A DNA stretch of 64,000 bases from a bacterium (GTDB taxonomy: Bacteria; CAYTYR01; UBA6262), in assembly GCA_028712365.1 (NCBI GenBank), contig JAQTQE010000003.1, positions 20,173 through 84,172 on the forward strand. Reading direction: 5' to 3'. The first letter of the stretch is position 1; every line of letters begins with the position of its first letter. A program made the position numbers and the translations under genes. Positions 43,120-59,639 of the stretch are shown here, in pieces. Under the pieces are notes generated by a model, which was not told the origin of the DNA, made no database searches, and worked only from the letters and a program-made list of their open reading frames with translations.

Positions 43120-43387
43120 CGTTTGCAGCGGAAATCCCTCTTCGAAGAAAAGCTGGTGGAGGTGAAGGGATTTCTCCTCACCCGCCCCGCATCTCGCGGG
43201 CCTCCTTCGTCGCCGGCCGCCTTCGCTCGGACCAATGGCGCTCAGGTCGGCTTCAAATCCCTCTTCGAAGAAAAGCTGGTGGAGGTGAAGGGATTTCTCC
43301 TCACCCGCCCCGCATCTCGCGGGTCTCCTTCGTCGCCGGCCGCCTTCGCTCGGACCAATGGCGCTCAGGTCGGCTTCAAATCCCTCT

Positions 43388-43407
<20 letters not shown>
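43120..43407. repeat. GC-rich 123-bp tandem direct repeat (2 full copies + 42-bp partial) whose unit begins with the last ~21 nt of tRNA-Ala
   Basis: Copies at 43120-43242, 43243-43365 and 43366-43407, differing by one C/T substitution. Local GC is about 60% against about 42% for the window. Confidence 0.8.
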
Positions 43408-43469
<62 letters not shown>

Positions 43470-43925
43470 ACCCCCATCGCGGCAAAAACTAATTGCGCCG
43501 CTCTCCGTAGGGGGAACCTTAGGTTCCCCTCTCTCGGCGCTTAGTCGTCTTACTTTCGGAGTGATTGCAGAGTTTATCGCTCCCTGCGCTGTCACCCCCT
43601 CCTGATATTTTGCTATCAACCTTCTCAGTATATAATGTTAAAAAATATTATAGTTTCTGGCAACCTCAAGTCATCCTCTTCCAGTTAAAGAGCTCATCAC
43701 GCTTTCACAAGCTAACAAGGTAAATGCTTCTGTTACCCCTTGGGGTGTTTCTGAAAAATCTGGAACTCTTAGCAACTCTCGCGGTCACCCTCTTCCATTT
43801 AGTTTGCTTTTAGCTTTTCCGGGCCAAATGGATTATTTATTACAACCCTCACTGTCAACCCCTTCCGGGTTTAGTATAAAACGTTTTTCCTTTACACCTC
43901 TACACCTTATACCTTTATACCTGCT

Positions 43926-46929: not shown

Positions 46930-47049
46930 ATTTTATGGCTCATAGGATTGTACAAGGTTATAATATTATAACCTTTACAATCCTATAACAAACATTCTAT
47001 TTAATTAGAGTATTTATAATATTATAAATACTCTTTTACCTTATTTGTA

Positions 47050-47141
47050 TTTCGGACACTATTTCGGACAATTTCATACTATTTCGGACATCTTCATTTC
47101 GGACACTATTTCGGACAAAACTAAAGCATTTTGGACATTCT
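47050..47141. repeat. Five direct copies of TTTCGGACA (plus one degenerate copy) at irregular 12-20-bp spacing: an iteron-like array upstream of the 364-aa gene
   Basis: Copies at 47050, 47062, 47082, 47097 and 47109; the degenerate copy is TTTTGGACA at 47130. Confidence 0.7.
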
Positions 47142-47142
47142 T

Positions 47143-48672
47143 TTAAGATTTCTTTCTAAAGAAGGCTCCTTTAGTAGCACCAATCTTCTCTATATACCCA
47201 ATTAGAAGCATCTTCTTAAAATCCCTCCGAGCGGTTTTTTCGTTTACCTTGAATTTCTTACAATAGGTTCCTATTTCCATGGTTTCATTTTTATTTATCA
47301 TTAACCTTAAAGCCTCTATTTGCCGTTCATTTAAACCTAACTTTCTAAGATCAGTCTGCCGTTCTTCCGGGACACTCGGCACTAAATCCAGAATCTTGTC
47401 TCCGGGGCCAAAAAAGCGGGTTACAAAGAACTCACCTTCTTCTTCAAACACAGGTACAGACAGCCCATGGGCTTTCATTAGCTTTTTCATTTTGCTGATT
47501 CCGGTACCAAAGCGCTCCATGTCCATAGTTTCATGGAAAATATGACAGATTGCTTTATTGCGCGTAGCATGATGCCCTTCAAGCTTCTTTATATTAAGGC
47601 CTGGTAATAAACCGCCAGGATTACTGACTTCCACTCGATCATCGAAAATTGAAACCATAATTGGAGCTCCGCTTTTTGTATAATCGCGATGTGCTATGGC
47701 ATTAATGATGGATTCGCGTACAGCTTCGTATGGATATTCAGGTATATCGACCCGTTTGAACTCGACGATTTTATTGGCTAATCTAGTATTGCGGATGAAA
47801 AAAGATTTCACTTCATCAAGCATCTTATAAATCGGACCTTTAATTTCCTGTGAGTCAATAAACTCCGAGCGAGTCGTTCCTTTATAGCGAGCTATACGGA
47901 TTTCATGATGGGAAATATGGTCAGAAGGAGCTTTACCAAAGAAAAGAAGAGCGGTATTAGTGGGATGCAAATCCCCATCTTCCTTTCTTATTACCTTAAG
48001 GGTGTCAATAAGAAATTTCCTTATTGTTATTTTTGGAATGGCAACTTTCAATTTAACTGCACGATTTTGAAGAAAATCTCTTACTGCCTGCTCATCGATA
48101 GACTCATATCCAAGATCTCGATGTATTGCTTTATCAAAGGGGCCTTTTGTGGATTCTATTTTATCTTCAAGAAAAGAATTAAGGCTGTTAAGAACCTGAG
48201 TTTTTAATTCATCAATATTTAGAAAACGCTTATAAATAAAGTCCGCTCTGATATTTTTAACAAAGTTCTGTGTGTCCTGGTCTCGCCTGAAATCATCTGT
48301 AGAATCACCTTTGATAAATGCAATTATTTCCCTGTCTGAGTGCGTTTTTAAAAAATGTTGAAATTCCCTTTCCGTAGCGGAGAGATTATCCTTCCCTTTA
48401 TACCCATAATTCTTACCAATTATGCACACATAAATATTGCTATCAGCGACGTTTTTAAGATAAGTTACTGCTGGTGACTTTCCTTTAGCAGGCAGATCTT
48501 CAAATAGAAAAACATCAAAAAACTTCTGAAGAGTGGCATTGTTGTCTACTACTCCTTTTATGGCAAAGCGTTCAGCTTTTAGTTCTTTCTGATTTGCGCT
48601 TACGAATATTTTATATGTCATATCCCAGCCTTTGAGATTTATTTTTGTTCTTGGACTCTCAAATACTTTCAA
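47143..48672 (-). CDS. DUF4062-like N-terminal domain fused to Schlafen/AlbA_2 and a HATPase_c_4-type C-terminal domain (RecG-C-terminal-like 'transcriptional regulator')
   Basis: N-terminal IFVSANQKELKAERFAIKG matches the VFISSTFxDLxxER DUF4062 motif. The middle and C-terminal regions (…IAHRDYT…VSNPGGL…GTGI…) fit the AlbA_2 + HATPase_c_4 architecture. Confidence 0.55.
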   Translation of the reverse strand: MKVFESPRTKINLKGWDMTYKIFVSANQKELKAERFAIKGVVDNNATLQKFFDVFLFEDLPAKGKSPAVTYLKNVADSNIYVCIIGKNYGYKGKDNLSATEREFQHFLKTHSDREIIAFIKGDSTDDFRRDQDTQNFVKNIRADFIYKRFLNIDELKTQVLNSLNSFLEDKIESTKGPFDKAIHRDLGYESIDEQAVRDFLQNRAVKLKVAIPKITIRKFLIDTLKVIRKEDGDLHPTNTALLFFGKAPSDHISHHEIRIARYKGTTRSEFIDSQEIKGPIYKMLDEVKSFFIRNTRLANKIVEFKRVDIPEYPYEAVRESIINAIAHRDYTKSGAPIMVSIFDDRVEVSNPGGLLPGLNIKKLEGHHATRNKAICHIFHETMDMERFGTGISKMKKLMKAHGLSVPVFEEEGEFFVTRFFGPGDKILDLVPSVPEERQTDLRKLGLNERQIEALRLMINKNETMEIGTYCKKFKVNEKTARRDFKKMLLIGYIEKIGATKGAFFRKKS

Positions 48673-48714: not shown

Positions 48715-49248
48715 CTATTTTATCATTAAATTATTTAACTCAGTTTTTTTATTACTAAATTTGTCAGCTATTCTTTGTATAAATTCAGGCCGCATAAATG
48801 AAATATTTCCAACTTTATTATAAACGGACAACGGAGTCCTTAATCTACCACTTTCGTCTTTTTCAATATTTAATCTTATATGGTGTTCATAAAATAATGC
48901 AAATATTTCTATATCATCTGGATCAATGAAAGCATAATTATTATTTAGTATTTCATATATTTTGTTATTGTTTTCCCTAACTTGCTTTATAAAATCATTT
49001 GCAATTTCAATGGTTTTACTAATAGTTGAACTATTATCATCTACATTTAAAAACTTATTATTCAATTCAAATAGCTTTGAAATTTGAAAGGTAAGAAAAT
49101 ATATGGGCCCATATAATTTCCTTATTTGTTCATTAAGAAAAATTATTCTTCTTTCTTTTTTATCGGAACGTTCTGCTCTTGCCCAATTTATAGCCGCACT
49201 TACAATACCTCCACCCAAGAAACTGATAATTAGACTTAATACATTCAT
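48715..49248 (-). CDS. Hypothetical protein with a single N-terminal TM helix
   Basis: TM at residues ~4-24, soluble remainder; the shared island cis-element lies upstream. Confidence 0.4.
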   Translation of the reverse strand: MNVLSLIISFLGGGIVSAAINWARAERSDKKERRIIFLNEQIRKLYGPIYFLTFQISKLFELNNKFLNVDDNSSTISKTIEIANDFIKQVRENNNKIYEILNNNYAFIDPDDIEIFALFYEHHIRLNIEKDESGRLRTPLSVYNKVGNISFMRPEFIQRIADKFSNKKTELNNLMIK

Positions 49249-49312
49249 TATTTACTCCATTTAACGACGAATTGATCGAAAATATGGCAGTTTAATCTGG
49301 GTGACACATTAC

Positions 49313-49340
49313 AATAAATGATTATCGTGTCCCCAGATAT
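49313..49340 (-). promoter_or_regulatory. Island cis-element copy (a): GGGGACACGATAATCATTTATTG (gene orientation)
   Basis: Shared 25-bp motif (see findings). Confidence 0.45.
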
Positions 49341-49366
49341 GGACTCCTTTGGTTTGGGACAGTCCC

Positions 49367-50218
49367 CTAAAACTGTAATTTATTCAGTTGGATCAACAAA
49401 TTAGAGTCAAGATTACATAATTGTACTTTATTATTAAAATAGTTTATAAGATAGATGTATTTCTCAATAATCTCCGGTTTTACCCTATTTTCATCTAACT
49501 GATCATATATTTTTGTTTTCATAATGCTTAACCAATCAAGTAAATCCTTGCCCTTGGACATATATTGTTCCCTGTTTGGCAAATCAAAGAAAATATCAAA
49601 ACATCTAATACCAGTATGGTCAATAAAGGGCATTCTATGCCTAATAGTATCTGAGACCCCCTTTCTATATTCCTTATCAATTAAATCGTATAAATCCGTA
49701 ATTAATTTATAAATACTATCATCAAATATTATTCTCGGATATACTGCTTTATCCTGCAATTGATAGGCATTTATTAAAGCAGGACTAAATATAAAACGAT
49801 TGCCCGAACCATCTTGAAACTTTTTATCAAAATGGGCCCCCTTTACAATTGCGCCTCGACAAAAGTGACCAGTCTTTATTATAACTTGGATATAGACATA
49901 TCTAACAAAAAACAAGTAATAATAATATGCTAAAAGCTCATCAAATTCTTTTGGCACACCATTTAACTCATTACTATATCTACTTATCGGTATCGTTATA
50001 AGAATGGAATCTGATAGTATTATTAGTTGAACTTTTTCAAAAACCCGATGAAGAATCTCATCTTTAATTTCCAACTGTTGTTTTAAGAAACTGTCAATGT
50101 TTTCAAAAGCCTCCATTAATTCAGTAGCCTTTTCCGCATCACTACCATATTTATTAACGAGCCCTTTGTAACCAAGAATATCTAAATAACAAACAATATG
50201 TTCTTCCATGGTATTCAT
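49367..50218 (-). CDS. Hypothetical protein with a class-III nucleotidyl-cyclase-like (palm-domain) N-terminus
   Basis: IVCYLDILGYKGLV resembles the VFSDIVGFTAL metal-binding strand. LIILSDSILITI resembles the KTIGDAYM second-Asp strand. CRGAIVKGAHF resembles RIGIHTGPVVAG. Confidence 0.4.
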   Translation of the reverse strand: MNTMEEHIVCYLDILGYKGLVNKYGSDAEKATELMEAFENIDSFLKQQLEIKDEILHRVFEKVQLIILSDSILITIPISRYSNELNGVPKEFDELLAYYYYLFFVRYVYIQVIIKTGHFCRGAIVKGAHFDKKFQDGSGNRFIFSPALINAYQLQDKAVYPRIIFDDSIYKLITDLYDLIDKEYRKGVSDTIRHRMPFIDHTGIRCFDIFFDLPNREQYMSKGKDLLDWLSIMKTKIYDQLDENRVKPEIIEKYIYLINYFNNKVQLCNLDSNLLIQLNKLQF

Positions 50219-50255
50219 TTTAACAATTATCCTTTATCCACTTTTTCAGCATTCT

Positions 50256-51545
50256 TTATGTTATATTGTCTAACACAGCCCGCGCTGGGAGCAAAGCCAA
50301 CAAATTTTCAGTTTTTGCGCGATAACCTTTATCCGTCTGCACTATAAGATCAAGATGCATAAGCTCGTTTAAATCTCTACTTAACATTTTAGAGGAACCC
50401 TGTTTATAATAATCAACAATTTTAGGACTTAATGCCACCAATCCCTCTTTAGGTACGGGTTCATTTTTATCTGCAAGTTCGATAACGAGTGCCCGCATTC
50501 GCTTTGATGGTGTCTCAGATCTCTTATGTTCTTTAAATTTATCATATACGTAACTTTCCCAGGAAATTTCTAATACTTGCTTAAAAATATATTGCAATTG
50601 CTCAGCGAGCCCATCACGAAATCCTTGTATAGCATAGGTAATAAATTCGCAAATATTTCGTTTTTGAGTTGCAACGCTTAATTGCCTGTAATATTCGCTA
50701 CGGGTCAGATTGTAATGATTACTAAGAAGATGCGCGGCCGGAGAAGGAACTCCTGAGGCAATCAGGATGGCAAATTCCAGCAAACGCCCGACTCTTCCAT
50801 TGCCATCTCCAAATGGATGTACCCATTCAAGGTATAAATGTGCCACTATCGCTTTAATAATACTATTGGCAATTGGATGGGCGTCGGGGATTATAAAATA
50901 GTCACTATTTAACCAAATGCACATCTTATCCATTAAAAAATCAACATCTTGCGAATCAACTGCTTTATATACCCCAGCTACAACTGGAACGCTTCTAAAT
51001 TCACCCGGGATAGCATAATCAGGACAAGGAACATTTTGCAGGATAATTTTATTAAATCGCTTAATCTCTTCTTTGGATACTACGAATTTTTTGCCATTAC
51101 AAATTGTATCTTTTAGTTCGTTACATAAAAACAATATATTTTCTACTTCTTGTTTTAAATATTCTCGCGAAGGAGGAACTTCCAATTTATTATCTATAAT
51201 TTGCCTAACCTGTCCTTCTGAAAGCGTATTACCTTCAATAGCTGTTGTTGCACTAGCACCTTTAGCTAGGTATACCTTGTGCATTTCTTCCGCAATTGCT
51301 GGCTTTAGGGGTATGCGAGAAAGATGCTCACATTTCGACAAACACTCCCCAATTTGGACCCATGTTAAGGAAGGCAGGGCATTTAAGTTAACCTCAAATG
51401 CCAACCAAGGATATTTGCTAATAATGTCTTTATTTATGTCCATTAAATTGTCCTCAATAATGCCAATAATATCAACTAAATTACAATATATGTCATATAT
51501 TATGTCCAATATTAAGATATCATAAAATAATATATTTGTCAACAA
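50256..51545 (-). CDS. Fic/Doc-family protein (AMPylase-type)
   Basis: Canonical Fic motif HPFGDGNGRVGR. Confidence 0.8.
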   Translation of the reverse strand: MLTNILFYDILILDIIYDIYCNLVDIIGIIEDNLMDINKDIISKYPWLAFEVNLNALPSLTWVQIGECLSKCEHLSRIPLKPAIAEEMHKVYLAKGASATTAIEGNTLSEGQVRQIIDNKLEVPPSREYLKQEVENILFLCNELKDTICNGKKFVVSKEEIKRFNKIILQNVPCPDYAIPGEFRSVPVVAGVYKAVDSQDVDFLMDKMCIWLNSDYFIIPDAHPIANSIIKAIVAHLYLEWVHPFGDGNGRVGRLLEFAILIASGVPSPAAHLLSNHYNLTRSEYYRQLSVATQKRNICEFITYAIQGFRDGLAEQLQYIFKQVLEISWESYVYDKFKEHKRSETPSKRMRALVIELADKNEPVPKEGLVALSPKIVDYYKQGSSKMLSRDLNELMHLDLIVQTDKGYRAKTENLLALLPARAVLDNIT

Positions 51546-51595
51546 AAATTACGTGGATTTATGACGGGTATATACTGGAAGTAGGTCAATTCTAG

Positions 51596-51778
51596 TTAAT
51601 AGCGAGGGCTTACTTTATTTGCTTTTATATAATTCTCGACATCTATAATGTCAAATTTTGTTAATCTGCCAACCTTTACATACGGGAATTTCTTCATAGA
51701 TACCCAGCTATATAGTGTATTTACACTTATATTCAGTATTGAGGCAGTTTCTTTTATTCCCATAAGCCTTGATGCCAT
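51596..51778 (-). CDS. AlpA/Xis-family small HTH DNA-binding protein
   Basis: 60 aa; IKETASILNISVNTLYSWVSMKKFPYVKVGRLTKFDIIDVENYI resembles excisionase/AlpA HTH_17. Confidence 0.65.
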   Translation of the reverse strand: MASRLMGIKETASILNISVNTLYSWVSMKKFPYVKVGRLTKFDIIDVENYIKANKVSPRY

Positions 51779-51817
51779 TTTCTAAGTCTATCCATCCGCT
51801 TTCGGATTTTACCTGTT

Positions 51818-51861
51818 TATTTAATTAGTATCGTGTCCCCGGAATTTGTGTCCCCAGATAT
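51818..51861 (-). promoter_or_regulatory. Island cis-element copy (b), with a duplicated GGGGACAC half-site
   Basis: ATATCTGGGGACACAAATTCCGGGGACACGATACTAATTAAATAAA. Confidence 0.45.
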
Positions 51862-51874
51862 ATCCTATATACTT

Positions 51875-53599
51875 TCATGAATGTCCCTTATCTTTCCAGT
51901 ACTGTGCATCAACCTTAATGAACTCCAAACGAGCCGGGTCAATCCACGAGATGAAAGAGGACGGCGTTTTCCATTTGCCAGCGAAGTTTCGGGTGCGAAT
52001 CAGGGTGCATTTTTTGCGTGTGCGAGTGAGCCCGACCACAAACTTGCAGATCTCGAGATCCTTGATTGAAGCCGAATCATGCGGTAATTCCCCATTGTGC
52101 AGACCAGCGATGTACACGTGTTGTGCGGAGAGGCCCTTGGCTCCCTCGAAGGAGGTCACTTTGACAGTAGGGATGTCCACTGATGCGTGAGTCTCTGCTT
52201 CAGCTTCTAGCTCCTCTGCCGGTTGGTACGCATTGGCCTCAGCCAGCACGTGCTCGCGGTATTCACTTGGGAGTACGTCAACAAGACGGTGCCTACCAGC
52301 TGCAGTCGCGACAATAGCTTCATGGAGAAAGGAAGGAGAGTCTGTACCAAGAACAATTCGCCAACCGAGATTAGAGAACTGATCAACTTTCAGAATCAAT
52401 AGACCCACTTCCCGATTGAGCTTGGTATCGGAGTCGCGCCGTGTGTCGACATTGTACCCCACGCTTTCAAGATGGCTGACGACTTGATCGCGGTAAGGCT
52501 GTGCCGCGATGACTAGTGCCGCAGGGTAGCCACCACGCAAAGCTGTCTCAATCTCATCCGATGGAATCTGGGCAATAGCTTGCGTGAGGTAGCGCCCCAT
52601 GTAGTTCACTTTCTGTCTCTGAACCGACGTCTCCACGTGCGCAATTTTCGGGTACTTTGCGCTGTCAGATCCCTTTGCAGGAGGAAAGTGTTTGTAGGGC
52701 TTATCAATCCTCCCTTCGAGACTGTCCAGCTCCTTAGCCTGGGTCAGCACGTCATTGACTGCATCGACGATCACCTTTGGGCAACGCATACAGAACGGAA
52801 GCTTGAAGACCTGATACTCCCCGGCATTGCTGAGGAGCCGGATATGATCCCAACTAGCATCGCGCAGCTGACTATACAGAGCCTGGTCATCATCACCGGC
52901 AATCAGGATGGGGCTACATTCAGCCAAAATGTCGATAACCCCCGCCTCAAGTGCGTTGAAGTCCTGGTACTCGTCAATTAGAATAAGCTTGTAGGAATTG
53001 GGCACAACATGCCCTGATGATAGTCCCTTATACACTCTGTAAACGGTATCGTCGAAATCGACCGCGTCGTAGTACTTGCCACGAGATAGGTAGAATGGAA
53101 TATGGTTCTCTTCTTTAAGCGAACGCATCTCGCTAACAAACTGAGGAGCATCATTTTGAGTGATAATCTCCCAGTCCGCTGCGATAAGGCTCGCAAGCCC
53201 GGGACAGCAGCGAAAATCTGTCGATAGAGACTTTCTGAGTGCCGGTTCGCGGTGCAGTAGGCCTAGGCAGTATGAGTGAAGCGTGAATACCTTAGCCAGT
53301 TCGCTTAGATCGTCCTCCAAATCGTTCTTTAGGTTGTTAATAAATGTGAGGACAATCCGCTGATCAGGCGTACCAGGTGCAAGCTCGAGCATCTGCTTGA
53401 AAAGCGTCGTCTTGCCGGTACCTGGGCCGGCAATCACCAGTTTCTTCTCACTGGGGGAACTCAGTACAGCCTTGATGGCGGCTCTGAGTTCAGCCATTTC
53501 CGGACCCTGCTTCTTGTCCTCTGACATGTCCCCCTCCAACTCCAGGCAATCAATCCAACGACAAAACTCACAGTTGCGGCTCTGCCGCATCCTGTACAT
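51875..53599 (-). CDS. UvrD/Rep-family (SF1) DNA helicase, GC-rich relative to its surroundings
   Basis: Walker A AGPGTGKTT; LILIDEYQDFN (motif II); C-terminal VTSFEGAKGLSAQHVYIAGL…GLTRTRKKC, typical of UvrD_C. Confidence 0.75.
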   Translation of the reverse strand: MYRMRQSRNCEFCRWIDCLELEGDMSEDKKQGPEMAELRAAIKAVLSSPSEKKLVIAGPGTGKTTLFKQMLELAPGTPDQRIVLTFINNLKNDLEDDLSELAKVFTLHSYCLGLLHREPALRKSLSTDFRCCPGLASLIAADWEIITQNDAPQFVSEMRSLKEENHIPFYLSRGKYYDAVDFDDTVYRVYKGLSSGHVVPNSYKLILIDEYQDFNALEAGVIDILAECSPILIAGDDDQALYSQLRDASWDHIRLLSNAGEYQVFKLPFCMRCPKVIVDAVNDVLTQAKELDSLEGRIDKPYKHFPPAKGSDSAKYPKIAHVETSVQRQKVNYMGRYLTQAIAQIPSDEIETALRGGYPAALVIAAQPYRDQVVSHLESVGYNVDTRRDSDTKLNREVGLLILKVDQFSNLGWRIVLGTDSPSFLHEAIVATAAGRHRLVDVLPSEYREHVLAEANAYQPAEELEAEAETHASVDIPTVKVTSFEGAKGLSAQHVYIAGLHNGELPHDSASIKDLEICKFVVGLTRTRKKCTLIRTRNFAGKWKTPSSFISWIDPARLEFIKVDAQYWKDKGHS

Positions 53600-53604
53600 G
53601 CTGG

Positions 53605-54480
53605 TTAGGTATTTTGTTTTGCATACACTTGTTCAAATGAATCAAATAATCTCATATTAACAGAATTTATCCATTTAAATAAATTTTCAAAATAATCCAA
53701 GTCTACGTCTATTCTTTTTAACCATAATATATATGGCTCATTTGTAAATCGTAGTAAAGGAGTGATGAATCTCATATCTACAGACTGATAATGAGGGTAT
53801 GTTGAAAATGTGCCGTCTTTATTACGTATTAAATTAAAATCCATAGACTCGTTCCAAGAACCATGTATTGATTCTGAAGGAATTCCATATAAATATTTAT
53901 ACATATCCTCACGAAATAGTTCTTTAAATATTTGATAAAAACTTTTCCCTGAGAGTTTCCATTTATTTTTCTTTTGCTCACTAAATGAAGCTACTGTTAG
54001 CTCTTCAGCATTCATTTTTTCTAAAATTGACTTTTTTAACCTAACACCCGCTGGAGTTTTAAAAAAGCCGGAAGATCTTTGTGAATCAACAATTATGTTT
54101 AACCGATCCTTGTATGAACACTTCCTGTAGTCTTCCACAACATTATCTCCATTAAGCAAAAGATATTTTGCAATAACAGCAGATTCCAATATTTGTCTAT
54201 CCAGAAGAGAAATTATATCACCTTTGTTTTCCTTATAATAGTAAACAACTTCTTTAAGAATTTTCCAAACCCTTATTAATAAACCCAATATTGCAGCATC
54301 ATTAAAATTATATCCGGTGGGATTTCTATCAATATTTATTATTCTTGTTATTGCATCATATATATCAGCAACATCTCCATAAAAATTATTAGAAAAGTCT
54401 TTCATTCTATCAAGTGAGGATAGCGCAAGGCTTATGTCAATTTCTTTATATTGATCAATAATATTTTGTATTTCTTCCAT
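53605..54480 (-). CDS. Hypothetical protein (291 aa), 5 bp upstream of the helicase
   Basis: ORF; the island cis-element lies upstream. Confidence 0.4.
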   Translation of the reverse strand: MEEIQNIIDQYKEIDISLALSSLDRMKDFSNNFYGDVADIYDAITRIINIDRNPTGYNFNDAAILGLLIRVWKILKEVVYYYKENKGDIISLLDRQILESAVIAKYLLLNGDNVVEDYRKCSYKDRLNIIVDSQRSSGFFKTPAGVRLKKSILEKMNAEELTVASFSEQKKNKWKLSGKSFYQIFKELFREDMYKYLYGIPSESIHGSWNESMDFNLIRNKDGTFSTYPHYQSVDMRFITPLLRFTNEPYILWLKRIDVDLDYFENLFKWINSVNMRLFDSFEQVYAKQNT

Positions 54481-54507
54481 TTTATTTGCCTAACATTGAA
54501 TCTGGGA

Positions 54508-54550
54508 GCATAATACTCATTTATTTAATTATTATTGTGTTCCCCGATTT
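54508..54550 (-). promoter_or_regulatory. Island cis-element copy (c)
   Basis: AAATCGGGGAACACAATAATAATTAAATAAATGAGTATTATG. Confidence 0.45.
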
Positions 54551-55334
54551 CATCTACTTTCTTAATTGAATTTAGGATGTCTTGTTGGTTTCTAAAGGAT
54601 TGCACGGGAAGTGTCTTTGCCCATTGTTCTAAAGTTCTTATCTTGAAATTGTAGTTTATAAGTAATTGCCTCTTAGTGAACCTTAATAGGCTTGGATCCT
54701 TAATAATAAATTGTAGCCGAGTAAATAAAATCTCATACTGAGCGAACAATGCAACACAATATATAAACGGCAGGAACATCAATAACATTACCGGTGGTAA
54801 AGCCAAGTCCTTTAGGGTCTGTATCTTCGCAAGGTTTCTGAAATCGCTGAGAATATGATAGAAGGCATAGCCGAAAATCCATAGACCAAACATTATTAGG
54901 ATATCATTTAACAGTTTCTGGACAGGCTTGTACTTCTCATTAGTTTCCGCTACTGCAAGCATTCCCCCGATAAGTGCAGCAATAGGCACTAGAATGAACT
55001 CAATGATTAAGCTAAATACATATAAGTTAACGATGAAGTCAATAAACACAGTGAATCTTATACTATCTTTTACAGCCTTTGTAAAAAAGTGCGAATCTTC
55101 AATGATATTATTAATTTGGAAAAGCATTATTGTAGCAATAGTCATACCCCAGATGATGGTTGATTTCAGCTGAGATATATCCCAGAGTCCAATGCGAGAA
55201 AGTACTACGACCTCTAAAACGATATAAAATAGCATCAAAACCGCTGAGACTATGATTGGCGTTACAAAAAGTGCTTTAAAAACCTGCTCTAGTGACTGCC
55301 TAATATGATTTTTAGTTAATGCCCAAATTAGCAA
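54525..55334 (-). CDS. Hypothetical polytopic membrane protein (about 7 TM segments)
   Basis: Hydrophobicity pattern; the island cis-element lies upstream. Confidence 0.45.
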   Translation of the reverse strand: MLIWALTKNHIRQSLEQVFKALFVTPIIVSAVLMLFYIVLEVVVLSRIGLWDISQLKSTIIWGMTIATIMLFQINNIIEDSHFFTKAVKDSIRFTVFIDFIVNLYVFSLIIEFILVPIAALIGGMLAVAETNEKYKPVQKLLNDILIMFGLWIFGYAFYHILSDFRNLAKIQTLKDLALPPVMLLMFLPFIYCVALFAQYEILFTRLQFIIKDPSLLRFTKRQLLINYNFKIRTLEQWAKTLPVQSFRNQQDILNSIKKVDEIGEHNNN

Positions 55335-55430
55335 AGCACTTAACCAAAAAATAATTGCTATCTCTCTGTTATCAAAAATCGTAATAGCACCTCATTTGGC
55401 ATCTTATTATCAATTATCTGTTATCTAAGA

Positions 55431-55488
55431 ACATAATACTCATTTATTAAATTGATACTGTGTCCCTCCGTTTTACGTCCCCGATTTT
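55431..55488 (-). promoter_or_regulatory. Island cis-element copy (d)
   Basis: AAAATCGGGGACG…GGGACACAGTATCAATTTAATAAATGAGTATTATG. Confidence 0.45.
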
Positions 55489-55540
55489 AAAAACCGCGAT
55501 GAAGCATACTCTTTACTCCAGTCATATTTTTTCCGCAATC

Positions 55541-56578
55541 TTAGCAACAGTCGCATAAATTTATTTCATTAAAAACTGAACAGCCACCCTTGCAGACTGA
55601 GAAATGTAAACACGCTTTACATTTCTCATAAATGATCTTGCTACGCATATCACGAAACACGGAGGCGTTTTGCCAAGCATCTAAAATCGAAACGCTTCTC
55701 AGATCTATCCCAGTAACCTCGCGTTCCATAAAGGAACATGGGTAAAACATCATTTTTTCAGAAATAAAGGCAGAAAAACGCCCCGCTTCACACGCTTCAA
55801 CCGATATGGGGTTATATTTAAGTTGACTAACTATGCCAGGAACGCAACAACTATCAAACCCAATCTTTATCTTGGAAGTACTAATTAGCGAAAAGAATAA
55901 CTCGGCGTCGGAAGACATCCTTAAGATATTTGAATGACTTCCTTTTCCAGCAGGTTTAAATAATAAAAATATTAGAGCGTTAACTCCAGATACCTTTTGA
56001 ATGCCCCTTGATAAAAATTCTATCGCAGAATCAAGTGTGCTGGCAGACAACACAAAATGAACATTTGTTTTAATTCCTGCATCTATCAATTTATTCAAAT
56101 TTGAATAAAACAAAGTTTCCGGCTCATAAAAACTAATTGCAACAGCTCCACAATGCATCCTTGATGCGGCAAGAATTCTGTCAGATAAGCCATCCCCATT
56201 CGTGGTATAAGAAGGGACGATATTATATTTCTCTCGCGTTACTTCAAGGATCCTTTCAAAGCTAGAATGTTGATTAGGATTTCCGCCGCCAAGGGCTACT
56301 TGCAAGGCCCCACAGTCCCTCGCTTGTTTTAAAATGTATTCATAATCAGCAAGAGACATCTCCTTCCCATTTATTGACGATGCCCTATAGCAAAAAGAAC
56401 AGCTCCTTTCACAATAATTTGTTATTGATATATCAAGAAGCTCAGGACCATGCACGGAATAGACCGGCTCGACAGTATTTTCATCTTCAACACGAGCAAA
56501 AAAACCGGTATTTTGATTGAAAATAACGGTATATCTTTCCTTATCATATCGCTTAAGCAACAAAGAGTTCATTTTCAC
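55541..56578 (-). CDS. Radical SAM enzyme with a C-terminal SPASM domain (anSME/peptide-maturase-like)
   Basis: CX3CX2C radical-SAM motif CERSCSFC. Full SPASM Cys set: C…YPC and CKACLHFSVCKGGC (CX2CX5CX3C). Confidence 0.8.
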   Translation of the reverse strand: MKMNSLLLKRYDKERYTVIFNQNTGFFARVEDENTVEPVYSVHGPELLDISITNYCERSCSFCYRASSINGKEMSLADYEYILKQARDCGALQVALGGGNPNQHSSFERILEVTREKYNIVPSYTTNGDGLSDRILAASRMHCGAVAISFYEPETLFYSNLNKLIDAGIKTNVHFVLSASTLDSAIEFLSRGIQKVSGVNALIFLLFKPAGKGSHSNILRMSSDAELFFSLISTSKIKIGFDSCCVPGIVSQLKYNPISVEACEAGRFSAFISEKMMFYPCSFMEREVTGIDLRSVSILDAWQNASVFRDMRSKIIYEKCKACLHFSVCKGGCSVFNEINLCDCC

Positions 56579-56994
56579 CAGCTTGAATTCGATGCATCAA
56601 TGTAAATGCTTTTTCCCTCAATCTTAAAAGAATCACAGCAAAAAAATGTTTCCATAGCATTTACATCTGAAGATAAAGTCCCGAAATAGAGGGAATCGCC
56701 CCTTTCCTTAGCAAGCTTGATCCTCTCGACTAAATCGTTAGAAAAAATATCGCTAATAAAAGCGTCCCATTGTTTACCTTTATTCCACCGATGGGAAGTC
56801 ACAGCGGAGTCGAAGGGTTCCTTATTAGAAGCAAACGTTCTATACAATTCTTTAAACATAGAATAAACTGGCGATTTATTGTTAATGCCAACGCACCTCA
56901 TAAACTGATCTTCCGTGAATTCTTGGCCCTTCCTGAGAACTATAACAAAACATGTAGACGAGCTGTTTGTTACAAAGTCGAATTTAATCTTCAT
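56575..56994 (-). CDS. Hypothetical protein (139 aa), translationally coupled
   Basis: 4-nt overlap with the rSAM gene; 11-nt overlap with the upstream ORF. Confidence 0.4.
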   Translation of the reverse strand: MKIKFDFVTNSSSTCFVIVLRKGQEFTEDQFMRCVGINNKSPVYSMFKELYRTFASNKEPFDSAVTSHRWNKGKQWDAFISDIFSNDLVERIKLAKERGDSLYFGTLSSDVNAMETFFCCDSFKIEGKSIYIDASNSSW

Positions 56995-57424
56995 CTGACA
57001 CTCCTAGCACGGAACTTAATATATTCTGGGCGCCATCAGAACTCATAATAAACATTTCTAAATTGTAATCGCCTGTAACGTGCTCTTTCCGCCACAACAA
57101 CGCCGTGTTCTTATACTTTAATAACTTCTTCTCCCCAACCACGGCTACTTTGGCGGGAAGATTGTACTTCTTTTGAAGAAAGTCACTAAATGTTCCATAT
57201 TCACGATTGTGATACTTTCTATACTCATCAAACAAATCGATCATCTCAGAATAAAAACAATCATAGACTCTACTAAATAGATTCCACGCAAAGAAACCAG
57301 AACGGACCTTTATTGCCTTTAATAAATTACGTTTACTAATATTCTTTACGACATGAAAAATATAAGTTTTATCATGGTCTTTCTTATACTCGTAGAAGAT
57401 CAATTGACACCTCTTATTTTCCAC
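56984..57424 (-). CDS. Hypothetical protein (146 aa), translationally coupled
   Basis: Overlaps both neighbours. Confidence 0.4.
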   Translation of the reverse strand: MENKRCQLIFYEYKKDHDKTYIFHVVKNISKRNLLKAIKVRSGFFAWNLFSRVYDCFYSEMIDLFDEYRKYHNREYGTFSDFLQKKYNLPAKVAVVGEKKLLKYKNTALLWRKEHVTGDYNLEMFIMSSDGAQNILSSVLGVSDED

Positions 57425-59639
57425 CGAATTCCTTTATTAAAGTAATGGCCTTCCCCTTGTAATAACGATTACTACATTTCGCATACTTCTCAAGTATCTT
57501 TAAAGCAGGTTCAGGATACTTTTTATAAAATGACGAAAGAATGTGCTTCGCAGTTGAAGCCATACCTATCTTTTCTCCAGATGCGATGAAAAATAATAAT
57601 TCTAAGGCCTGATTATTTGCATCTTGGCTCCTTATAGCCTCATCGATAAATTCAAAATAATGATCTAATTTTATGCCAGTTTCACTATTACCATAGGCAA
57701 CAGACAGATGTTCGTTGTAAAAATGATTCTCAAATTTATCCAAACGCTCATCATCAGACAATTCGATTAAGATCGGGAAAAGCATAGTAATATTCAGGTT
57801 TTTATACGTCTGCGGATCATATCGATAATAAATTAGCATTTCCAAAATGAACTCGGCTTTATCTCTAGATGACAAATATTCCTCTTTAACTTTATTGACA
57901 TCTTCACTAGTTAAGTCACCATCATTTGTTTCAAACAAATAATGAAGGTATTTGTCCTTGTGCCATGCTGTTGCTTCTAATATTGGCTCAAGCTTCATGT
58001 TTTTACGGTCCTTTTTCGAGAAGAAAAACAGGTATTTACTTACCCCTTCGAACAAAGGTTTCTGAGGCAAAATCTCATCAGTAATAAATCTTGTGCATTT
58101 TGACTCATCCTCGGATAGCAATATATTGACCAAATAGTCGGCAATCAAATAATCTCTGATTTCGTCAAAAGTAAAACTTATGACTTCCCCATCCCGCAAA
58201 ACGCCAGCCTTATCAGCTACATCTCTTCTAAAAAATATGTTTTCATCTATTAACTTGCGCAATACATTTTTATCAGTCGTGGCTTTATCAATAATCATTT
58301 GCATGGGAACGTCTTTATATAATTTGGAATCAATCATATGTCGCACTACTTCACAAATAACTTTTTGAATAGAAGTATTTCCATCAACCTTTCCCCTTAT
58401 TCCATCCCTGATCTGTCTATAGTATTCTTGAAAAAGATCCAACATGTATACGTTTAATATTGAACCAATGCTTTGGCCTTGATGCACCTCACAAAAAATA
58501 CGCAATAATAAGAAATTATTTACTAGCTTCTCGTAGACTCTTCCATCAAACGACTTCCATTCTATTTTAAATAACGAAAGATACTTTCTGAACAAATTGT
58601 CTTTTTCATGTTCCTCAAGTTTCGAATTTATGCCATTAATTATATTTATCTCTGAAGCAAACGACGATTTTTCTATGCTCTTAAAATTCAAATTATAATA
58701 TTCTGTTCTACATGTCAGGATTATCCTAACAAAAGGATTGCTGAGCAAATCTCTGATAAATATGTCTAATGCGTTAGGGAAGTTTGCATCACTCGATTCA
58801 TTCATAGCATCGACAATAAAAATGAAAATTGTTTTTCTTTGTTTGCATTCATTATCTATAAAATTATTTAAAGAATTAAAATCTAGTCCGCCGGTTATTC
58901 TTTCTGTAACAAAATCTTTCATAGAGTTATTATGTATTCCATAGAAGTCGGCCCCATAAAATAAGGCAACGGGGATCTCCAGTTTTAACAAAAATTCTCT
59001 TGTGAGGTCACATATTAGGTTTGTTTTACCTTGACCCGCGTCATCTAACAGCACAAGAACGCGCGACTTTAATAAATTAAACTTTGCATTGGTCTCTTCC
59101 ATCTTCCAGCGAGCTTGCCAAGGGAAATCATTGCTTTTTTCTGGCATACTTTCCAAAACTTTTGAGTTTTGAAAAATTACAACGCGTAACTCCTCGATCT
59201 TAGCTTTAAATGCTCTTAAAGAAGGATGCGAGAGCTTCCGAAAAACCTTAAAAACGATTCTCTGTTTAATCTCTCTTTTGAGCACAGAATTTGTGTATGT
59301 AAAATCGCGCCTATTTAAATGATCTATGAACTTATTACAAAATAAAAACGGATGACAAAAATATCTGAGCCCCTCTTTAATTTGATTGATTTCAATATAA
59401 GAATCGGGCAGGTATTTTTTTGAATTGATTTGTTTTTGAAGTTGATCCTGCGTAAATAACAGTAGTTTCTTTCTAATAGCGATATGCTGTTTATTACGTT
59501 TGAAGCGCTCTTGAATAAAATTAAAAAGCCCTTTAACAAGTCCTTTCAAAAAAGGCACCACAGTCAAAGTTACTACTAGGCCGACTCCTAGCGCAACGGA
59601 ATTCTGGTAAACATATTGTTTTACTGATTGCCAATCCAT
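57414..59639 (-). CDS. Membrane-anchored P-loop NTPase (STAND/KAP-like) with a C-terminal helical-repeat region
   Basis: N-terminal TM helix; Walker A LLDDAGQGKTNL; Walker B IFIFIVDAMNE; long α-helical C-terminus. Its start overlaps the hsdR stop by 1 nt. Confidence 0.6.
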   Translation of the reverse strand: MDWQSVKQYVYQNSVALGVGLVVTLTVVPFLKGLVKGLFNFIQERFKRNKQHIAIRKKLLLFTQDQLQKQINSKKYLPDSYIEINQIKEGLRYFCHPFLFCNKFIDHLNRRDFTYTNSVLKREIKQRIVFKVFRKLSHPSLRAFKAKIEELRVVIFQNSKVLESMPEKSNDFPWQARWKMEETNAKFNLLKSRVLVLLDDAGQGKTNLICDLTREFLLKLEIPVALFYGADFYGIHNNSMKDFVTERITGGLDFNSLNNFIDNECKQRKTIFIFIVDAMNESSDANFPNALDIFIRDLLSNPFVRIILTCRTEYYNLNFKSIEKSSFASEINIINGINSKLEEHEKDNLFRKYLSLFKIEWKSFDGRVYEKLVNNFLLLRIFCEVHQGQSIGSILNVYMLDLFQEYYRQIRDGIRGKVDGNTSIQKVICEVVRHMIDSKLYKDVPMQMIIDKATTDKNVLRKLIDENIFFRRDVADKAGVLRDGEVISFTFDEIRDYLIADYLVNILLSEDESKCTRFITDEILPQKPLFEGVSKYLFFFSKKDRKNMKLEPILEATAWHKDKYLHYLFETNDGDLTSEDVNKVKEEYLSSRDKAEFILEMLIYYRYDPQTYKNLNITMLFPILIELSDDERLDKFENHFYNEHLSVAYGNSETGIKLDHYFEFIDEAIRSQDANNQALELLFFIASGEKIGMASTAKHILSSFYKKYPEPALKILEKYAKCSNRYYKGKAITLIKEFGGK

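Follow-up and report, generated by a model that had tools for sequence, protein, structure and literature searches.

To our knowledge, immunity built on nucleotide cyclases (Pycsar, CBASS, type III CRISPR and Panoptes) has so far always combined a synthase with a receptor or effector. Here we describe a protein family that keeps the fold of the synthase, with its metal-binding residues intact, but has no receptor gene. The member examined here is a 283-residue protein encoded in a 64,000-nt stretch of bacterial contig JAQTQE010000003.1 (hereafter the window), in a string of genes that begins with a helix-turn-helix (HTH) protein, continues with a Fic protein and the cyclase-like protein, and is followed by the gene for a 177-residue protein with one transmembrane (TM) segment. 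An earlier sequence-only reading of this locus proposed that the cyclase-like and membrane proteins form a Pycsar/CBASS-like signaling pair or, failing that, that the former is an inactive homolog acting with Fic. Our results suggest instead a credible and apparently undescribed family of cyclase-like proteins that is widespread, has no effector and accompanies defense islands; its function and mechanism are inferred throughout. On balance we lean slightly toward a single-gene, self-contained and catalytically competent defense module.

The 283-residue protein gave no matches to Pfam (E≤1), NCBIfam or PADLOC (E≤1), and a word-seeded search of 5.8 billion proteins returned two relatives, one an identical copy and the other at 44% identity. 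Scoring a two-sequence profile with HMMER against every representative of 1.84 billion clusters recovered 2,471 clusters at E≤1e-3, 202 of them also at E≤1e-10, so the family becomes visible only with exhaustive search. The open reading frame (ORF) genuinely belongs to a large family, as yet unnamed, of cytoplasmic proteins, mostly 250-300 residues long, with no sensory or regulatory input domains and no membrane domains. All named members are annotated as "hypothetical protein" and none carries a Pfam domain, while every one of the 93 aligned members matches phrog_23933 (function not assigned). Distribution is patchy across many phyla, plasmids and viral contigs, including five IMG/VR contigs. 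With member P0214 as query, tblastn found 76 plasmid records; the window protein gave no match against plasmids, and neither it nor member P0208 matched phage records. A seven-sequence subfamily alignment used as a locus-scan query yielded two genome, four metagenome and no viral loci. Among ten longer members the sole domain fusion is P0144 (584 residues), with an N-terminal DUF4365 (3.7e-11), which we take to be a PD-(D/E)xK nuclease-like fold. No description of the family turned up in the literature library that was searched, which does not prove that none exists.

Structure prediction with AlphaFold2 (AF2) on an alignment of 93 homologs gave a confident model (pLDDT 92.4, pTM 0.91), compared with a pLDDT of 43.7 on a two-sequence alignment. 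In this model a class III nucleotidyl-cyclase homology (palm) domain, with a predicted β-α-α-β-β-α-β core, takes up the first ~210 residues. When searched against the PDB with Foldseek, the best 50 hits were all catalytic domains of class III adenylyl or guanylyl cyclases (best E=3.5e-5, TM-score on target up to 0.59), among them the PycC structures 6YII at rank 9 and 7R65 at rank 46, which are clade A and clade B Pycsar cyclases (PMC11224242). We also aligned the family profile with hhalign to six mammalian adenylyl cyclase (AC) C1/C2 domains, using sequences taken from PDB alignments. The whole domain aligned (E=3e-4, 149 columns), which matches D13, D70 and R121 to the Asp of FADIEGFT, that of LGDCYY and the Arg of RVGIHSG, respectively.

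Conservation, assessed in alignments of 93 and 150 homologs, converges on the same residues. D13, G16 and D70 are invariant in both alignments; at a mean column identity of 17% in the 93-sequence alignment, L15, S69, R121, G122, R162, K253 and N262 are each more than 90% conserved. Of the 150 sequences in the larger alignment, 142 have R121, the phosphate-binding Arg, and 149 have G122; P161-R162 at strand β6 is conserved across the family. Weak matches to PF00211, the class III cyclase family, appear in 9 of the 93 relatives (best E=2.9e-4). Based on the Foldseek hits, the hhalign mapping and the Asp invariance, we consider the fold call and the choice of catalytic aspartates correct. The sequence-only reading had recognized class III cyclase or palm hallmarks in three N-terminal strands; these coincide with conserved columns and with strands β1, β2/β3 and β4 of the model and exceed chance resemblance. 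That part of the reading is borne out by AF2, Foldseek and hhalign alike, and the two observations that could have overturned it are absent: the structure search on the 283-residue protein found a cyclase fold, and the metal-binding aspartates of LDILG and LSDSI (D13 and D70) do not vary among homologs.

One defining catalytic feature is nevertheless missing from the family, namely the Asn/Arg dyad of class III enzymes (VNxAxR in helix α4): column 149 is I or V, and column 153 varies among E, K and Q. Family members look like the "C1 half" of a cyclase, the half that binds metal. Some established cyclases can do without the catalytic Asn (PMC4886424); in this family both Asn and Arg are lost. 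Because both aspartates are strictly invariant, we infer a metal-dependent enzyme that uses nucleoside triphosphates (NTPs) rather than a dead homolog. Following the palm domain is a C-terminal helical hairpin of ~70 residues that had no match in Pfam or the PDB. A PDB sequence search with the family profile returned only designed helical bundles.

We then compared the protein with known systems. It belongs to the class III superfamily at the level of fold but not to PF00211. With canonical cyclases it has the palm core in common, and its D13, D70 and R121 fall in the columns of the two catalytic aspartates and the Arg of AC C1. Where these enzymes have the transition-state Asn and Arg, however, the family has I/V and a variable residue; PF00211 did not match the window protein; and the family lacks sensory and membrane domains and occurs as a mobile, island-borne gene. 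By fold and setting the closest relative is Pycsar PycC, which has the class III-type fold, the two metal-binding aspartates and a defense-island location in common with it; the 283-residue family differs in lacking the Asn/Arg dyad and in carrying its own C-terminal hairpin. Pycsar is defined by an adjacent effector in which a cyclic-nucleotide-binding domain (CNBD) is fused to TM or TIR domains (PMC11224242). Beside the 283-residue gene we found no Pycsar-type effector, its other neighbors being Fic and a DUF4062 protein, and no PADLOC PycC model matched at E≤1, whereas the same library matched a PycC-like cyclase from another family locus (L033) at 2.4e-16, providing a positive control. Pycsar membership was therefore rejected on all three counts: PycC sequence models, CNBD effector and conserved gene pair.

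DUF2652 comprises ~250-residue single-domain bacterial proteins that are class III cyclase-like by remote homology only (Ramakrishnan et al. 2016, PMC4886424). It is likewise cryptic and has Ile in place of the catalytic Asn, but it keeps the transition-state Arg, and no embedding in defense islands or restriction-modification (R-M) systems is reported for it (PMC4886424). We rejected membership, as the window protein has no Pfam match and DUF2652 is not among the 25 families listed of the 55 matched by at least one member (E≤1). Panoptes combines the Cas10-like minimal palm cyclase mCpol with an adjacent 2TM-β effector (PMC12657230) and resembles the window in encoding a small palm-domain cyclase beside a small membrane protein in a defense context; the palm subtype is wrong, with no Cas10 or mCpol in the best 50 Foldseek hits, and the neighboring protein has a single TM segment in a pair that is not conserved. 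CBASS requires a CD-NTase (a Pol-β-type nucleotidyltransferase) and was discarded, since we found a class III palm and no PADLOC match.

For the partner genes, we collected 21 further distinct family loci through gene-position look-ups, genome, metagenome and viral scans, and plasmid records, and searched all family loci with hidden Markov models of the 283- and 177-residue families and with the window Fic. No conserved neighboring partner of the 283-residue family emerged. A homolog of the 177-residue protein occurred in none of the 21 other loci, the pair being confined to the window and a duplicate contig of the same locus (L003), and the cyclase-like gene was absent from two other distinct loci of the 177-residue family. 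In the membrane protein itself, a single hydrophobic segment (residues 4-23, 49180-49239; mean Kyte-Doolittle hydropathy 1.82 over residues 1-19) agrees with the N-terminal TM helix described earlier, and the soluble domain is conserved among its homologs, of which we found 22. Also in agreement with the earlier description, no domain that binds cyclic nucleoside monophosphates (cNMPs), nor any other convincing domain, was detected in 21 members (the protein and 20 homologs).

These data bear directly on the proposal that a cyclic nucleotide made by the cyclase-like protein activates the 177-residue protein as a membrane-disrupting effector in a divergent Pycsar/CBASS-like pair. In its favor, the two genes adjoin on one strand with 118 nt between them, the cyclase fold has been borne out, the neighbor has an N-terminal membrane anchor, and Pycsar systems with TM effectors exist (PMC11224242). 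Against this stand the failure to co-occur in the 21 and two loci elsewhere, the missing ligand-binding domain, the PADLOC PycC models that miss the 283-residue protein, and the 118-nt gap itself, which contains the 177-residue gene's own copy of an upstream element, as the sequence-only reading had noted. Without co-occurrence and a cNMP-binding domain the two-gene signaling system fails its defining tests, and we give this explanation very little credence. The 177-residue protein is an independent cassette and not a conserved partner: those of its homologs that could be placed have either a SIR2_2 gene or housekeeping genes as neighbors, and in no case a cyclase-like gene.

Fic fared little better as a partner. 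It lies near the family in one of the 21 other loci, where the homolog, only distantly related to the window Fic (E=8e-9), is two genes away with RadC and hsdM between. One could imagine an HTH-Fic-cyclase-like three-gene system in which the palm protein supplies or senses the nucleotide substrate for AMPylation, as the tight spacing on one strand, the single cis-element ahead of the HTH gene and the second locus with Fic two genes upstream would allow. With Fic missing from 20 of 21 other loci, distantly related in the remaining one, and of a SoFic type that PADLOC treats as a single-gene system, we regard this arrangement as highly improbable. The fallback of the earlier reading, an inactive homolog acting with Fic, meets the same scarcity of Fic and is further argued against by the invariance of the catalytic aspartates. 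In practical terms, the Fic, cyclase-like, 177-residue and DUF4062 proteins are best treated as separate modules.

Rather than a partner, what recurs in the family loci is defense genes. In three unrelated type I R-M loci hsdM and hsdS flank the gene, which overlaps hsdM by 1-4 nt (P0155, P0174, P0171), and in another locus it faces a type I R-M operon in convergent orientation, with GmrSD nearby (P0208). On an Agrobacterium plasmid (L032) its neighborhood includes AbiEii and an AAA+UvrD pair, and on a Rhizobium plasmid (L031) patatin, endonuclease and AAA genes. Elsewhere it directly follows GajA-GajB (L035), is found among Schlafen-like and HNH genes (L015), or stands between a PycC-like cyclase, itself preceded by an MmeI-type enzyme, and a TIR protein (L033). 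Clear defense neighbors are present in about 11 of 17 annotated loci. These contexts suggest that the family behaves as a single-gene passenger of defense islands, often nested in other systems.

In L033 (positions 1-2974) the MmeI C-terminus, PycC-like cyclase, family member and TIR_2 protein follow one another on one strand with short gaps. The PycC-like cyclase (PF00211, 2e-10) retains TVNLAAR. This placement of a dyad-containing beside a dyad-less cyclase is reminiscent of mammalian C1/C2 pairing and was seen once only.

Class III cyclases are common bacterial signaling enzymes, which raises the alternative that the protein is an ordinary signaling cyclase or housekeeping regulator residing in variable regions rather than an immune gene. 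Three loci with only metabolic or lipopolysaccharide-synthesis neighbors fit such a role. The patchy distribution over plasmids and viral contigs, the PHROG match, the nesting in R-M operons, the defense genes flanking most annotated loci and the lack of input domains do not, and we consider it improbable. A further alternative is a dead or nearly dead pseudo-cyclase that binds NTP, senses nucleotide levels or a phage factor, and modulates Fic or type I R-M by protein contact. Its supporting evidence is the absent dyad, the translational coupling to hsdM in three loci, the 37-nt gap after Fic with no convincing terminator, and the precedent of PrrC, which is encoded within an R-M locus, restrained by the R-M complex and unleashed as a backup effector on R-M inhibition (bioRxiv 10.1101/2024.01.29.577857). 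Yet an invariant Asp pair and a 95% conserved Arg at so low an overall identity are typical of active enzymes, some cyclases tolerate Asn loss (PMC4886424), and the diversity of host systems (R-M, Gabija, Pycsar, Fic or none) speaks against one specific partner, leaving this explanation unlikely.

How would a self-contained module act? By analogy with class III enzymes and PycCs (PMC11224242), the protein might form a head-to-tail homodimer that would bind NTP with Mg2+ or Mn2+. Upon a phage-derived trigger it could convert NTPs to a nucleotide product acting on non-adjacent targets, or drain the NTP pool. For regulation or sensing, or as a source of the active-site residues that are missing, the best candidate may be the C-terminal hairpin with K253 and YHN262. 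Copies coupled to hsdM could plausibly, if conjecturally, "guard" the R-M complex in the manner of PrrC: PrrC and RloC follow the same genetic logic of a stand-alone gene nested in an hsdMSR operon, but PrrC is an ABC-ATPase-like anticodon nuclease of other fold and chemistry, and the window copy does not lie inside an R-M operon. In its most specific form, the proposal is a dyad-less single-protein immune enzyme without a receptor gene, nested in defense operons as a backup guard and triggered for example by anti-restriction proteins, whereupon phage replication is poisoned directly by a non-canonical nucleotide or NTP levels collapse; we put this forward as a tentative and rather doubtful possibility.

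Several observations weigh against a defense module. The putative defense role is drawn from the contexts of the loci, through guilt by association over about 22 of them, which is suggestive and not a statistical enrichment; three loci (L013, L014, L017) lack recognizable defense neighbors, and many candidate families of comparable sort exist. The missing Asn/Arg dyad means that the protein could be a poor cyclase or no cyclase, and with an hhalign probability of 40% against the AC domains the residue-level mapping leans on the structure search. The window copy is also slightly atypical: it has I66 in place of the R or K common in the family, at the position where AC C2 carries its adenine-specifying Lys, and Q155 in place of the E found in 129 of 150 sequences. 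If the family alone protects against phage, it would exemplify either a cyclase fold that works without an effector or a new kind of R-M guard, and would give a name to a sizable block of "hypothetical proteins" (phrog_23933) of hundreds to thousands of clusters.

Table 1. Features of the gene string and the surrounding island, in window coordinates.
Feature	Position	Strand	Evidence
60-residue HTH_17/excisionase-type DNA-binding protein	51596-51778	-	Pfam HTH_17 8e-11; TIGR01764 (excisionase domain) 35.5 bits vs cutoff 28.8
429-residue Fic, class II, SoFic-like architecture	50256-51545	-	Pfam Fic 8.5e-14; PADLOC SoFic 2.2e-51
Fic inhibitory-helix motif TTAIEGN, N-terminal	51228-51248	-	Motif coordinates
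Fic active-site motif HPFGDGNGRVGR	50784-50819	-	Fic residues 243-254
283-residue cyclase-like protein	49367-50218	-	ORF; AF2, Foldseek and hhalign
Class III nucleotidyl-cyclase homology domain	~residues 5-212 of the 283-residue protein	-	AF2, Foldseek, hhalign
Strand β1 motif VCYLDILGYKGLV, first metal-binding Asp D13 and G16	50156-50194, residues 9-21	-	Invariance; hhalign to FADIEGFT of AC C1
β2-β3 hairpin ILSDSILITI, second metal-binding Asp D70	49991-50020, residues 67-76	-	D70 invariant, S69 >90%; hhalign to LGDCYY of AC C1
Strand β4 motif CRGAIVKGAHF, R121 and G122	49829-49861, residues 120-130	-	Conservation; hhalign to RVGIHSG
Helix α4 to strand β6 FSPALINAYQLQDKAVYPRI; dyad positions I149 and Q153; R162 conserved	49727-49786	-	150-sequence columns; hhalign to VNxAxR
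C-terminal helical hairpin, ~residues 216-283, conserved K253 and Y260-(H/F)261-N262	49370-49573	-	Conservation; model helices 216-222, 225-243, 248-267
177-residue protein, N-terminal membrane anchor	48715-49248	-	ORF; hydropathy
509-residue DUF4062 + HATPase_c_4 (Schlafen/AlbA-like) protein with C-terminal HTH	47143-48672	-	PADLOC matches to pAgo-associated domains
UvrD/GajB-like helicase	51875-53599	-	G+C 52% vs 26-37% for all neighboring genes
DUF5677 gene, tightly paired with helicase gene	53605-54480	-	G+C 29%
cis-element copy, inverted repeat TCTGGGGACAC-N19-GTGTCACCCAGA, in 118-nt gap before 177-residue gene	49296-49337	-	
cis-element copy, two tandem GGGGACAC boxes, upstream of HTH gene	51796-51855	-	
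cis-element copy upstream of DUF5677 gene	54500-54550	-	
cis-element copy upstream of 269-residue ORF	55423-55473	-	

The layout of the locus is as first described (Table 1): the four ORFs, the quoted motifs and the cis-element all lie where the sequence-only reading had placed them, the 60-residue protein is Xis-like by its HTH_17 match and above-cutoff TIGR01764 score, and the Fic call holds by motif and Pfam match. Tight linkage of HTH, Fic and 283-residue genes is likewise evident from gaps of 50 and 37 nt on one strand. The Fic protein satisfies the active-site pattern HxFx(D/E)GNGRxxR and has a SoFic-like architecture, the PADLOC model covering residues 88-411. It scored 49.6 bits against the SoFic equivalog model (NCBIfam NF046030), far below the cutoff of 550; by these sequence comparisons it is a relative of Shewanella SoFic and not an ortholog. 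PADLOC lists SoFic-type Fic proteins as single-gene systems, and the window Fic is probably an independent single-gene defense candidate.

Its annotated TTG start at 51545 is doubtful, and an ATG at 51443 (M35) is probably at least as plausible. The TTG start adds 34 residues from AT-rich sequence, and the region's best sigma-70-like site, TTGACA-17-TATCTT (51542-51514), overlaps this extension upstream of the ATG; were the ATG the true start, Fic would have its own promoter. A promoter and terminator scan found no more sites than in shuffled sequence, and no convincing terminator between Fic and the 283-residue gene. Operon structure is accordingly drawn from gene spacing and the cis-element only.

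Downstream, the 177-residue gene is followed in the window by the DUF4062 (TIR-like/NADase) gene, and a 194-residue homolog of the membrane protein (P0269, L027-L029) has a SIR2_2-domain gene ~150 nt downstream. TM proteins of this type may pair with NADase-type genes, a pattern that fails in L023-L026. "Evangelion" is a single-gene, NAD+-depleting defense family with a DUF4062 core and an auxiliary region (bioRxiv 10.64898/2026.06.25.731849), and the 509-residue protein has this general architecture in common with it.

The window neighborhood is a low-GC island of ~19 kb adjoining tRNA-Ser. On the minus strand it encodes, in order, hsdS, hsdR, a STAND-like NTPase, a radical-SAM protein, DUF5677, a GajB-like UvrD helicase, the HTH protein, the SoFic-like Fic, the cyclase-like protein, the 177-residue protein and the DUF4062 + HATPase_c_4 protein. 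The contrast in base composition between the helicase gene and its neighbors suggests mosaic, recent assembly. Between the type I R-M genes and DUF5677 (54525-59639, minus strand) lie a 741-residue STAND-like NTPase with a weak nSTAND3 match, two small ORFs, a 345-residue radical-SAM protein and a 269-residue ORF without matches, and these may be further defense candidates.

The island element spans ~50 nt, reads GGGGACAC-[GA]ATA-nTAATTAAATAAA... and is partly an inverted repeat. Its four copies each lie 45-90 nt before the start of a cassette, and it was found only in this island and the duplicate contig. The sequence GGRRACACRRTA occurs three times in the window (0.05 expected), with one copy at 49323-49334 ahead of the 177-residue gene. 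The element may be an operator or promoter for an island-wide regulator such as the 60-residue HTH protein. We rejected an integron attC reading, having noticed no attC-like R''/R' core sites and found no integrase domain in the island genes scanned, and an Rfam search of the island returned no regulatory RNA. In the gap between the 509- and 364-residue genes (47049-47138) are several direct repeats of ATTTCGGACA, which have a CGGACAC core in common with the island element in opposite orientation. Finally, beside tRNA-Ala (43400-43475, minus strand) a 123-bp unit is repeated in tandem in the region 43132-43419, as two copies with 99% identity followed by a third, partial copy of 42 nt that overlaps the tRNA 3' end; these units may be duplicated attachment-site remnants.

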